A DNA stretch of 64,000 bases from contig JAHQJS010000005.1 of assembly GCA_019057385.1 (NCBI GenBank), positions 96,001 through 160,000 of the forward strand, given 5' to 3'. The notes beneath the pieces were generated by a model, which made no database searches, had not been told where the DNA came from, and worked only from the letters and a program-made list of their open reading frames with translations. Shown here in pieces: positions 20,341 to 23,709 of the stretch (positions are counted from its first letter, which is position 1; each line of letters starts with the position of its first letter). A program made the position numbers and the translations under genes. The DNA is from Candidatus Borrarchaeum weybense (lineage in GTDB: Archaea > Asgardarchaeota > Sifarchaeia > Borrarchaeales > Borrarchaeaceae).

Positions 20341-21699
20341 TTATACTTTTGGCAAGATTTCGAGCGATTTATCGATTTGTTCCTGTGGCATTTCATAGTC
20401 AACAAGGTTTCCAGCGAGATATTCTTCATATCCTTTTAAATCAAAATGACCGTGTCCGCTGTAATTAAAAGCAATCACTTTTTCTTCACCAGTTTTTTTA
20501 CATTTTTGTGCTTCTTTGATCACTGCAACGATAGCATGATTGGTTTCTGGCGCTGGAACGATCCCTTCTGTCTTTGCAAAGATCACTCCTGCTTCAAAGG
20601 TTTCTATTTGATGGTATGCAACGGACTCCAAGATACCTTCTTTTTGCAGTAGACATAAACTGGGGGCGTCTCCGTGGTATCTTAATCCTCCAGAATGAAT
20701 TGGTGGTGGGACAAACTCGTGCCCAAGAGTGTACATTTTCACTATAGGAGCTAACTTACCAGTATCTCCGTAATCGTAGGCATAAGGTGCTCTTGTCAAT
20801 GTAGGAACCGCCTTCGGCTCAACAGCAATAAATCGGATATCTTTTCCTTTCAATTTGTCTGGAACAAACGGATAAAAGAACCCTGCAAAATTACTGCCGC
20901 CTCCAACGCAGCCAAGCATCATATCAGGATATTCCCCAATCTCTTCAAACTGTTTTTTAACCTCCTGACCTACAATTGTTTGATGTAGCAGGACGTGATT
21001 GAGCACGCTTCCTAGACTGTACTTAATTTTATCGTCGTTTAGAGCATCCTCCACAGCTTCAGATATTGCTAAACCAAGGCTTCCAGGATGGTCAGGATTT
21101 TCCTTTAAAACACTTCGTCCGACCTCTGTATTATTAGACGGACTTCGGAAAACTTCGCTGCCATAAGTCTGCATTAATACGCGTCTATACGGTTTCTGGT
21201 CGTAACTGACACCAACCATATATACACGGCATTTTATGTCAAAAAGGGCACATGCGAGGGAGAGCGCACTTCCCCATTGACCTGCACCTGTTTCAGTTGT
21301 AATTTGTTCTACACCTTCTTTCATTGCAAAATACGCTTGGGCGATAGCTGTGTTGGGCTTATGACTTCCCGTAGGGCTGAGATCCTCTCGCTTATAGTAG
21401 ATCTTAGCTGGCGTATCCAAATACTCCTCAAGCCGTTTTGCCCGATATAGTGGGCTTGGTCTACCTAATCGCCTGTAAGCCTCTTGTAACTCTTCAGGAA
21501 TAGGAATGTATCTTTCTGGGGACATCTCCTGTTGTAGAAGTGCAACAGGGAACAAAGGCATTAAATCAGGAGGACCACAAGGTTCTTTCGTTACAGGGTG
21601 TAACGGAGGAGGGAGAGGGGCTGGTAGGTCGGCTAATACATTATACCATTGAGTTGGTAACTCATCAAGGTTTAAGACAACTTTTACACCATCATACAT
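20341..21699 (-). CDS. trpB2: Tryptophan synthase beta chain, TrpB2 type
   Basis: [17 protein letters not shown] (PLP Lys), [28 protein letters not shown]. Confidence 0.96.
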
Positions 21700-21742
21700 T
21701 TTCAATCACCTCAAATTTTTTAGATTTCTATTTTTATTTTTC

Positions 21743-21748
21743 AAAAAA
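21743..21748 (-). terminator. Oligo-T tract between Trp leader and trpB2 (candidate attenuation terminator)
   Basis: T6 on the minus strand, 41 nt after the leader stop. Confidence 0.4.
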
Positions 21749-21789
21749 GTTGGAAACGAGGGGGTATCAATAGCTGTTGAAATAGTGGG

Positions 21790-21843
21790 CTACTGCCACC
21801 GCCAAGAATGCCAGGGATGCCAAGAAAAGTTTGAAAAGCTCAA
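21790..21843 (-). CDS. Trp-rich leader peptide (MSFSNFSWHPWHSWRWQ)
   Basis: TTG-started 17-aa uORF with 4 Trp in the last 10 residues, between a BRE/TATA and trpB2. Confidence 0.7.
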   Translation of the reverse strand: MSFSNFSWHPWHSWRWQ

Positions 21844-21886
21844 AGCTAAGTCAATTAAAAATTCAGGAGTAAAATCTGTTGGAGTT

Positions 21887-21903
21887 TTATAAAAACCTTT
21901 TTC
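21887..21903 (-). promoter_or_regulatory. BRE/TATA promoter for Trp leader-trpB2
   Basis: GAAAAAGGTTTTTATAA on the minus strand. Confidence 0.6.
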
Positions 21904-21951
21904 CGGGCAGGGTGGTTTAGCTTCAAGACTGAGAGAAAAGAAAAGACATTT

Positions 21952-21988
21952 TGTTAAAGCAAATCCCATTGGCGCAATCAAACCACCT
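21952..21988 (-). repeat. Motif B, copy 1 (similar to 23672-23709)
   Basis: + strand TGTTAAAGCAA..CC(A/G)TTGGCGCAATCAAA..CC(A/G)CCT at both sites. Confidence 0.85.
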
Positions 21989-22035
21989 AATCTGCCTATT
22001 TCTTTAGGCTTGTTATTTAAATCTTTCTCTGTTTT

Positions 22036-22183
22036 ATTACATTTTTCGTCCCCTGCGAGTCATCCATTCCCAACAATTGAGGCGTCGGACCTCTGAATTG
22101 GTTCAGTCTCATGCACAAGAACGTGTCCCACGTGATATACGAGGAACATACCGCCTTGTAACTCATGTATTCTCTTTCAAAGA
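22036..22183 (-). ncRNA. Long structured repeat, copy 1 (candidate guide-RNA scaffold)
   Basis: 139/148 identical to 23447-23594; own TATA upstream; nested hairpins on the minus strand. Confidence 0.65.
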
Positions 22184-22186
22184 TTC

Positions 22187-22194
22187 TATATAAA
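22187..22194 (-). promoter_or_regulatory. TATA box for repeat copy 1
   Basis: TTTATATA; predicted start site ~22166. Confidence 0.55.
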
Positions 22195-22351
22195 CACCGC
22201 GATTCTGCTAAACCAACTTTTTCTTACCACTTTTCGATCCTGAAAGCAAAGCAGAGCTGAGTTTTCTACAGCTTATTTTTATCCCTCATTAAGTTGCTTC
22301 CTGAAAAAACGAATTTTTACTGCCACTCCTCTCGAAAACAATTTAACGTTG

Positions 22352-22534
22352 TCACTTCTGTCGATTTTGCATCGCTCCCCACCTTGAAGATTTCTTCCTG
22401 TTCGTCAAATTTAACTCATGATGTTCCGCTAGGAGCCGATACAAGTTGTAACGTGGCAATAAAAAGTTGCATTCGAGGCAACAAAATGTTGTTTTAACAG
22501 ATTCAATACAATGATCCATTCTTGTCATGTTCAC
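22352..22534 (-). CDS. Small putative Zn-finger protein coupled to the Cas5-HD gene
   Basis: Overlaps the upstream stop (GTGA); CLEC..HH. Confidence 0.35.
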   Translation of the reverse strand: MNMTRMDHCIESVKTTFCCLECNFLLPRYNLYRLLAEHHELNLTNRKKSSRWGAMQNRQK

Positions 22535-23343
22535 AAACCACTATTCAAGTCGTCAAGATAGAGATTTACCATTAATAAGAGATGATTTTTCAAAGACGAA
22601 AACCCAAATTTTAACGCTTCGTTGATCTTATCAAGTGCTTGACATTTTCGAATAAAAGTATAAAGGGCATACGGGGAATATTGGCACTTTTCTATCTCTC
22701 TTTTTAATGCATCGAAATTTATCTTTTCTAGTTCAGTCACACGATAACGCGTGAACGCAGACCATCTAAATTTTCGAGAAATCATTGCAGAAAGTCTATC
22801 ATAATACTGAAGAAGAGGGAGAAGAGGCAATTCAGCCTCATCTGTATCATAGTTGTGGTGATTTTCCACAAACTTACGGACTTCTTCATCAAGTATATTA
22901 ACTTCAGAGTAGATTTTGCTCTGATGTCGATTAGTGTGTACGAAATCATGTAGTAACATAGCTATAACTAATGTTTCTTGCACGTTGGAGAGTTTAGGGA
23001 GTTTTTTACGGATCTTAATTGTTCTTGAAATATAGAGCGGATTTTTTTTGAGTTTACTAACAGAAGTCCATAAGATTTGCCCCATCCCTTCACATGTATA
23101 ACTCCCAACACTGTCAATGGCGAGCGCTTCTTCAAGTTTATATTCTGGAACGATGAACTCAACATTTCCATACCATGCCCTAAAGGTCATAGGCGCACGT
23201 CTTTGCCCTACAGTCAATTTTCCGAATACCCTAGGACGACCATTTATGGTCATCGCTCCAATATCGGCAATTCCAAAATGCCTGCGCCTTGAAACGATAG
23301 GAGTTTTTGTATAACCCATTAATTTAAAGTATTTTTGTGACAT
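22531..23343 (-). CDS. RAMP (Cas5-like)-HD nuclease fusion
   Basis: N-terminal YFKLMGYTKTPI strand and G-rich loop VGSYTCEGMGQI; HD motifs LLHD..HH..YDRLSA with C-terminal SLKNH (Cas10-type permuted order); GAGGGG SD. Confidence 0.75.
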   Translation of the reverse strand: MSQKYFKLMGYTKTPIVSRRRHFGIADIGAMTINGRPRVFGKLTVGQRRAPMTFRAWYGNVEFIVPEYKLEEALAIDSVGSYTCEGMGQILWTSVSKLKKNPLYISRTIKIRKKLPKLSNVQETLVIAMLLHDFVHTNRHQSKIYSEVNILDEEVRKFVENHHNYDTDEAELPLLPLLQYYDRLSAMISRKFRWSAFTRYRVTELEKINFDALKREIEKCQYSPYALYTFIRKCQALDKINEALKFGFSSLKNHLLLMVNLYLDDLNSGL

Positions 23344-23671: not shown

Positions 23672-23709
23672 TGTTAAAGCAACATCCGTTGGCGCAATCA
23701 AAACCGCCT
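23672..23709 (-). repeat. Motif B, copy 2 (within the variable segment after repeat copy 3)
   Basis: Matches 21952-21988; associated stem TACAGGCG (23620-23627)/CGCCTGTA (23705-23712). Confidence 0.85.

Follow-up and report, generated by a model that had tools for sequence, protein, structure and literature searches.

A Trp-codon-rich leader reading frame upstream of trpB2 in Candidatus Borrarchaeum weybense: a candidate attenuator with counterparts across Asgard archaea

The window analyzed here is a stretch of 64,000 nucleotides from Candidatus Borrarchaeum weybense, whose genome has Candidatus Borrarchaeum yapensis and Borrarchaeota archaeon as its closest relatives. Its minus strand carries a gene for a stand-alone TrpB-like PLP enzyme, preceded by a reading frame (...NFSWHPWHSWRWQ) that is rich in Trp codons at its end and closes with a TAG stop codon at 21790-21792. 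The downstream gene had been called trpB2 in a first-pass annotation of this DNA, and the identification was borne out by the NCBIfam models NF009057 (721.8 bits) and TIGR01415 (684 bits), both over their cut-offs. In this Asgard genome of the Borrarchaeota, 90 nt separate the stop codon of the Trp-rich frame from trpB2, which starts with ATG at 21697-21699. In the direction of transcription, the features of the locus are as follows.

22014-22021, minus strand: TATA-like box TTTAAATA, aligned with sister contigs that are free of a neighboring island
21983-21988, minus strand: SD-like element AGGTGG, 13 nt 5' of the leader ATG
21952-21982, minus strand: conserved 5' motif TTTGATTGCGCCAATGGGATTTGCTTTAACA, including the likely leader start codon and copied in an ARAMP element
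21790-21969, minus strand: leader ORF MGFALTKCLFFSLSLEAKPPCPEKGFYKTPTDFTPEFLIDLALSFSNFSWHPWHSWRWQ, probably 59 codons plus stop, from the comparison of sister sequences
21796-21822, minus strand: four-Trp cluster TGG CAT CCC TGG CAT TCT TGG CGG TGG, read in frame
21763-21800, minus strand: predicted hairpin GGUGGCAGUAGC, 14-nt loop, GCUAUUGAUACC, spanning the last Trp, Gln and stop codons
21757-21764, minus strand: anti-SD-like stretch CCCCCTCG, right after the hairpin
21743-21748, minus strand: T6 run, then an A run; a candidate signal for archaeal termination
21706-21712, minus strand: Shine-Dalgarno (SD) sequence GAGGTGA of trpB2, conserved in every sister sequence
20341-21699, minus strand: trpB2, 452 aa, assigned with Pfam PALP and NCBIfam

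The four TGG codons of the leader frame (21820-21822, 21811-21813, 21802-21804, and 21796-21798) fall within its final 11 codons, so that the predicted peptide ends in WHPWHSWRWQ; Pfam and NCBIfam returned zero matches to it. The cluster is retained in the sister sequences L002 and L003, and its final TGG is TTG in L170. These in-frame Trp codons, the stop, the C/T-rich spacer, the T6 run, the SD and the trpB2 start are all present as the first-pass annotation had described them, but the start codon and promoter that it gave to the leader did not hold up. The TTG at 21841-21843, taken as the start, is TTA in a sister genome (G004, locus L002) and in contig L167, and at the BRE/TATA element TTTTTATAAAA (21885-21895), which falls within a frame that every sister sequence keeps open, L002 has GATTTTTTCGAAA and L170 has GGTTTTTGTAAAA. 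Both were discarded for this non-conservation, and the start and promoter originally proposed are thus probably wrong. The alignments make it more likely that the frame starts at the ATG at 21967-21969 and runs for 59 codons; this ATG is conserved in the sister sequences, and the homologous codon is CTG in five other families. It is embedded in the 5' motif, which in Borrarchaeota takes the form CCA-ATG-GGA-TTT-GCT-TTA-AC, and the start context in these leaders, GCGCCAATGG, resembles a Kozak sequence. The SD-like element 5' of the ATG is kept as (A/G)GGTGG in L001, L002, and L170, and other long-type leaders have purine-rich GGAG, GAGG or GGTG at a comparable distance from the start. Its spacing of 13 nt exceeds that of trpB2's own SD, and a role in ribosome binding is uncertain.

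The TATA-like box at 22014-22021 aligns with TTTATAAA in L002/L167 and TTATATAT in L170, sister contigs without the 10.5-kb ARAMP island that adjoins the leader in the window. It stands approximately 45-50 nt from the leader ATG, a spacing that is likewise found in the 1.4-Mb genomes of family f3 and in L117 and L087, and on these alignments it is probably the native promoter of a leader-trpB2 transcript. The island ends with a terminal repeat at 22035-22183, leaving the box just on the host side. Because similarity to the sister contigs starts slightly 5' of the shared box and the island ends at this repeat, the native leader promoter seems to have been retained. The ARAMP element itself contains, at 23672-23702, a copy of the leader 5' motif with 27 of 31 nt identical (TTTGATTGCGCCAA[T/C]GG...GCTTTAACA). 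The copy includes the leader start codon and is located in the RNA tail of the island; at its four mismatches, three positions agree with L170 (TGGATGTTG), and the positions after them agree with G000. Such a copy of a conserved 5' motif suggests that the element homes to conserved regulatory sequence, and it seems to target this sequence in the way that other mobile elements use tRNA genes.

How the leader frame has diverged indicates what is selected in it. The frame is open from the same ATG in L001, L002/L167, and L170, which are all the sister sequences that reach that far, with a single 3-nt in-frame insertion in L170; in family f3 the leaders exist in 45- and 46-codon versions. Substitutions in the Borrarchaeota leaders are spread evenly over the three codon positions (5/6/7, 12/13/13, and 14/15/17 in the three comparisons), as they are in f3 (8/8/8), with counts of 16/13/10 in f21, and most of the changed codons in the Borrarchaeota leaders are non-synonymous (13/15, 25/29, and 27/34). 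Even so, the frame has survived numbers of substitutions that closed it in 60-90% of random trials, and its indels are in-frame. Even substitution across codon positions in a frame that is kept open means that openness has been selected and the peptide sequence has not, which argues for a leader ORF rather than a functional small protein. Openness and the four terminal Trp codons thus appear to be the only selected features of the leader, an ORF that we infer to be translated.

The metabolic setting of trpB2 was examined in the same genome, which is 4.18 Mb in size and scored 100% complete. It holds two stand-alone TrpB2 genes, and the region upstream of the second (contig C6, 804494-805771) has no Trp-rich uORF. 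No match was obtained in the genome for PF00425 (TrpE) or PF00218 (TrpC), and PF00290 (TrpA) gave a borderline match only, at 26.7 bits. With no TrpE or TrpC, a borderline TrpA and two stand-alone TrpB2 enzymes, the organism probably lacks a route from chorismate to Trp and is probably a Trp auxotroph with indole salvage. Since trpE and trpC seem to be missing, the product of trpB2 probably makes Trp from scavenged indole, which it would join to serine.

A Trp-rich tail in this position is not a common occurrence in the genome. Over all six frames of the 4.18 Mb, 33 ORF tails have at least 4 Trp in their last 12 codons, and only 1 of the 33 lies outside ORFs of at least 100 aa, namely the leader before trpB2. 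With two TrpB2 genes among approximately 4,000, the chance that this single tail would precede one of them is about 5e-4. An nhmmer search of the genome found no second copy of the leader, the sole other match being a 39-nt piece inside the ARAMP island. Tails with three Trp before TPR, HD-domain and unknown genes were treated as chance occurrences. A scan of all intergenic ORF tails in the genome found no leader rich in another amino acid before a gene of the matching pathway: a Tyr run before a metallo-beta-lactamase-fold gene and a Cys run before a class-I tRNA synthetase gene were rejected as leaders on this ground, as were Thr and His runs before genes with no Pfam match. On contig C5, outside the window, an ORF tail at 425388-425426 (SSENCCCCTSCNCCSCCSAC) has 6 Cys in its last 12 codons and stands 192 nt 5' of a gene for a 997-aa class-I aminoacyl-tRNA synthetase with a LeuRS-type editing domain, for which a link to cysteine metabolism is not evident.

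The upstream regions of trpB2 orthologues were then compared at 106 Asgard loci, together with other genomes and metagenome contigs. At the Asgard loci, a tail with at least three Trp was found on the sense strand in 35 cases versus 2 on the antisense strand. No other amino acid had a comparable sense excess among these 106 loci; the next was Cys (9 sense versus 4 antisense), and tails of Pro and Gln were more numerous on the antisense strand than on the sense strand. The first-pass annotation had proposed a search for conserved Trp-rich uORFs before trpB2 across Asgard genomes, and they are plainly there: at least nine Asgard families have such tails, with a stop 0-5 codons after the final Trp, in sequences that are otherwise unalignable. 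Its proposal of a ribosome-stalling control by Trp is therefore supported in substance, the enrichment being specific to Trp and to the sense strand and the tails recurring across Asgard. Representative tails, each followed by its stop codon, are given below.

Own genus: SWHPW[HR]SWRWQ
Family f3 (1.3-1.4-Mb genomes): FWAWRWL[TL]WP
Family f26: LFWRWQWCWRWQ and FFWCWQ
Family f23: FWWHWF
Family f21: SWRWWHEK
Family f4: GWPWRGPWQ
Family f17: RWCICWASSWHW
Family f10, in nearly every sampled genus: M-A-T-x5-WRWQWPWRWR, for example MATVNNLAWRWQWAWRWR, in an ORF of 16-20 codons
MAGs labelled Thermococci: MSLEPSNTTKVVTKDSFLRFWWWRY, ending FWWWRY

The start of the long leaders is also shared. A motif GGA-(A/C)TG-G..TTA.C heads a long frame in seven further families, f3, f26, f14, f21, f4, and f17 among them, and in each case it shares its frame with the Trp tail, from which 41-79 unconserved codons separate it. 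The five Asgard families with CTG at the codon homologous to the leader ATG have it within GGA-NTG-G (L004, L005, L087, L101, L115, and L118), and in L004, L101, and L115/L118 there are zero canonical starts between the preceding stop and this CTG. Judged from the sequences, these leaders could use CUG initiation or could start further downstream. Trp-rich tails were absent in families f8, f9, f15, f18, f24, and f32. In family f7 (L103, L106, L107, L113, L149, L151, and L156-L161), a conserved uORF of approximately 16 codons, M-S-V-R-Y-Y-Q-W-x-x-G-P-x-G-P-V, lies 150-185 nt before trpB2. This uORF is of a different design, in which one Trp is invariant and the end, rich in Gly and Pro, is conserved; it may encode an arrest-type peptide or be conserved at the RNA level.

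The hairpin predicted at 21763-21800 lies in an 86-nt segment that folds at -16.8 kcal/mol, which is no better than shuffled sequences (z = 0.10); its core is invariant, and no covariation was found among the four sister sequences. Within 30 nt past the hairpin, CCTC is present in 4 of 4 sister sequences, and the CCCCCTCG stretch pairs with the trpB2 SD in the minimum free energy (MFE) fold (CCUC:GAGG). Counted from the T6 run, the leader stop lies 42 nt and the hairpin 14 nt upstream, and the trpB2 ATG 43 nt downstream. A T5-T6 run with an A run occupies the same aligned place in L001, L002, L003, and L170, where the flanks vary, and T6-T7 runs are similarly placed in family f3. T runs are common in AT-rich spacers, and the case for conservation of the T6 run as a termination signal is weak. 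One hairpin was predicted, and mutually exclusive terminator and antiterminator hairpins were not found. A scan of the minus strand gave no hairpin-plus-U intrinsic terminator, which agrees with the first-pass statement that no strong GC terminator hairpin is visible, and a search of 21600-22600 against Rfam returned no relevant family, RF00513 (Trp_leader) included, even at E values up to 10.

Several schemes of RNA switching were tried on these sequences and rejected. When the Trp region was masked in partition-function folds, the accessibility of the trpB2 SD changed by approximately 0 in Borrarchaeota and in most other lineages, which speaks against an SD occlusion switch; in g55, a genus of family f10, the modelled accessibility rose by approximately 0.3 when the Trp codons were masked. 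Pairing of the stop codon with downstream RNA was unsupported as a general rule across lineages. A long-range helix enclosing the ORF, predicted at -40 to -48 kcal/mol in f3, was weak and inconsistent in the Borrarchaeota sequences, and the pairing of GGUGGUUU with AAACCACC in the MFE fold is lost in L170.

RNA structure clearly matters in the leaders of relatives in families f10 and f3. In the f3 leaders, codons 4-10 pair with the RNA immediately past the stop in a helix of at least 12 bp. In f10, the largest Asgard family sampled (L130-L148, L165, and L166), approximately 250 nt of RNA around the short Trp leader are conserved, and the hairpin at the stop codon shows compensatory changes by RNAalifold (GGCGU/ACGCC, GGUGC/GCACU, GGCAU/AUGCC, and GGUCUU/AAGACC). 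A helix enclosing the f10 uORF was read by eye, in which GGUUUA before the ATG pairs with UAAACC after the ORF; variants read in the same way are UGGUUUAG/CUAAACCA, UGAUUUAG/CUAAAUCA, and AAUAAGA/UCUUAUU. In addition, GCAUUGGA and AUUGA compete for UUCCAAU in the f10 RNA, and a variable hairpin immediately precedes the trpB2 SD.

Leader-peptide attenuation is a textbook bacterial mechanism that requires coupled transcription and translation. Leaders with Trp codons control bacterial trp operons, and archaea also couple transcription with translation. Archaeal RNA polymerase terminates at oligo-U, and aCPSF1/FttA ends transcription that has become uncoupled. Against this background, it is highly likely from the sequence comparisons that the Borrarchaeum leader is a ribosome-read sensor of charged tRNA-Trp that controls trpB2. 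The best full explanation, which we consider likely, is that the 59-codon leader is translated, that ribosomes stall at its Trp codons, and that the position of the ribosome decides transcription into trpB2. A shortage of charged tRNA-Trp would make the ribosome stall at the TGG cluster, where it would cover the final codons, the stop codon and the hairpin's 5' arm; with ample Trp, it would run on to the UAG and be released. Its position would then determine whether RNA polymerase proceeds into trpB2. Among the possible outputs, we favor one in which the C/U-rich leader RNA left bare by the released ribosome, whether or not the hairpin contributes, would allow premature termination at the T6 run, either intrinsically at oligo-U or through aCPSF1/FttA, and a stalled ribosome would block this termination. 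The genome contains beta-CASP genes, which makes a factor-dependent route possible. Termination at the T6 run as the output is conceivable, although we hold it somewhat doubtful. More tentative still, and rather unlikely as a general statement, is the proposal that Asgard leader ORFs act as amino-acid sensors and that, in the long form, the stalled ribosome shields the nascent RNA from termination by aCPSF1/FttA or at oligo-U, in place of a hairpin switch of the bacterial kind.

The same sensor could have a different output, with the stalled ribosome altering translation of trpB2 or stability of its mRNA, either by freeing the SD from CCCCCTC or through cleavage at the stall. The pairing of CCUC with the SD GAGG in the MFE fold, the CCTC kept past the hairpin in all sister sequences and the gain in modelled SD accessibility in g55 are all consistent with such an output, but the pairing comprises just 4-5 bp, and the masking effect of approximately 0 in the four sequences from Borrarchaeota, as in most other lineages, leads us to regard it as unlikely. 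Readings that dispense with a sensor were also weighed. If the frame encoded a functional small protein whose C-terminus is rich in Trp and Arg, with an only incidental position beside trpB2, a length of 59 codons, greater than that of typical leaders, and a frame that stays open in sister genomes would be readily explained. However, the even and mostly non-synonymous substitutions described above, the lack of shared similarity among families outside the start motif and the Trp tail, the lack of Pfam or NCBIfam matches, and an association that is specific to trpB2 and restricted to Trp make a small protein very improbable.

An equally improbable reading is that the RNA acts without being translated, as a riboregulator that binds a protein or the tRNA CCA end through its UGG repeats. 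It would account for the recurrence of UGG triplets at 6- or 9-nt spacing and for the f10 region, where the nucleotide sequence itself is conserved and forms part of a hairpin with compensatory changes. All UGG triplets share one frame, though, and in every lineage a stop follows within 0-5 codons; moreover, the frame begins with a conserved ATG in f10, Borrarchaeota and f3, gaps in the ORF are multiples of three, and no Rfam family matches. Finally, the frame might be open by chance or as a by-product of an antisense ORF (21785-21892, plus strand). An antisense frame is open for 73-92 codons in three Borrarchaeota sequences and for 97 codons in L101, yet its openness is not kept in family f3, L087, L117, and f10, and a codon-position bias is seen on neither strand. 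Because its openness is not kept outside the Borrarchaeota clade and L101, the antisense reading was rejected; with the 35 versus 2 strand distribution of Trp tails and the low positional probability as well, a chance or antisense origin is scarcely credible.

The ribosome-read Trp sensor that we prefer has its nearest textbook counterpart in the trpL attenuator (RF00513; relatives his, leu, thr, ilv, and phe). In both, an upstream ORF carries cognate codons clustered near its stop (E. coli TrpL ends in WWRTS, the Borrarchaeum leader in WHPWHSWRWQ), a U run lies between leader and gene, openness and codons rather than the peptide are selected, and the controlled gene belongs to the pathway of the sensed amino acid, here through TrpB2. 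In contrast to trpL, the Borrarchaeum leader has 59 codons instead of 14, its host is an archaeon whose RNA polymerase is eukaryote-like, and the controlled gene is a stand-alone trpB2 rather than a trp operon. Because the Borrarchaeum locus also has neither the alternative 1:2, 2:3, and 3:4 hairpins nor a hairpin-plus-U terminator nor an Rfam match, it is a variant of the trpL type and not a member of it.

In the tna operon of E. coli, a ribosome held at the end of the leader masks the adjacent RNA and a termination factor cannot load. The favored model for Borrarchaeum, in which a stalled ribosome would mask C/U-rich RNA from FttA, shares this logic, and by this comparison its output may be closer to tna/Rho-type attenuation than to the hairpin switch of trpL. 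TnaC senses free Trp through an arrest peptide (W12, D16, and P24-stop) and activates a catabolic operon, whereas the Borrarchaeum gene is anabolic and its signal would presumably be uncharged tRNA-Trp at tandem codons. The arrest residues of TnaC are absent from the Borrarchaeum peptide, which ends in SWRWQ with no Pro before the stop and is not conserved between families. Closer at hand, the short f10 leaders share with the Borrarchaeum leader the gene, the position and the tail with its run of Trp, and L101 (f26), f10, and Borrarchaeum leaders all end in WRWQ. The Borrarchaeota leader differs from the f10 form in being three times longer, in having another conserved start motif and in having no enclosing helix of the f10 kind.

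Two published systems deserve comparison. According to a preprint on mycobacteria, leaderless short ORFs with poly-cysteine tracts sense cysteine for downstream genes (bioRxiv 10.1101/834739); as presented there, they resemble the present leader in using a uORF rich in a single amino acid as the sensor with no classical enterobacterial hairpin set, and they are unlike it in being bacterial and leaderless and in sensing cysteine. The only archaeal Trp-responsive control of trp genes that we found cited is TrpY, which represses these genes in Methanothermobacter and Thermococcus (Xie and Reeve 2005, cited in PMC1854888); as cited there, it is a DNA-binding repressor with no upstream ORF or Trp codons. 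In the open-access literature, we found no published report of an archaeal leader-peptide attenuator, of a link between Asgard uORFs and Trp, or of archaeal transcription-translation coupling used for gene control. With its conservation in many Asgard families and its at least two architectures, one short as in f10 and one long as in Borrarchaeota, the Trp leader would provide a concrete and testable case of archaeal attenuation. If shielding from termination proves true, transcription-translation coupling would for the first time be seen to serve regulation in archaea. Asgard archaea are the closest prokaryotic relatives of eukaryotes. The sensor would switch on indole salvage, which fits a partner-dependent life of a Borrarchaeon apparently unable to make Trp.

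Trp-rich frames were also encountered outside the Asgard set. In a group of MAGs and metagenome contigs (L040, L043, L072, L171, and L179), some of which are labelled 'uncultured Thermococci archaeon', the tail ending FWWWRY stands 133 nt before a trpB2 that is 61-63% identical, and a hairpin UAAGCG...CGCUUA is found at the stop codon. If the Thermococci label is right, the Trp leader extends beyond Asgard. On the betaproteobacterial contigs L050, L184, L187, and L049, MRWW(WW) occurs within or at the end of ORFs approximately 400 nt before trpB2 homologues, and these ORFs may be ordinary bacterial trp leaders of a neighboring gene.
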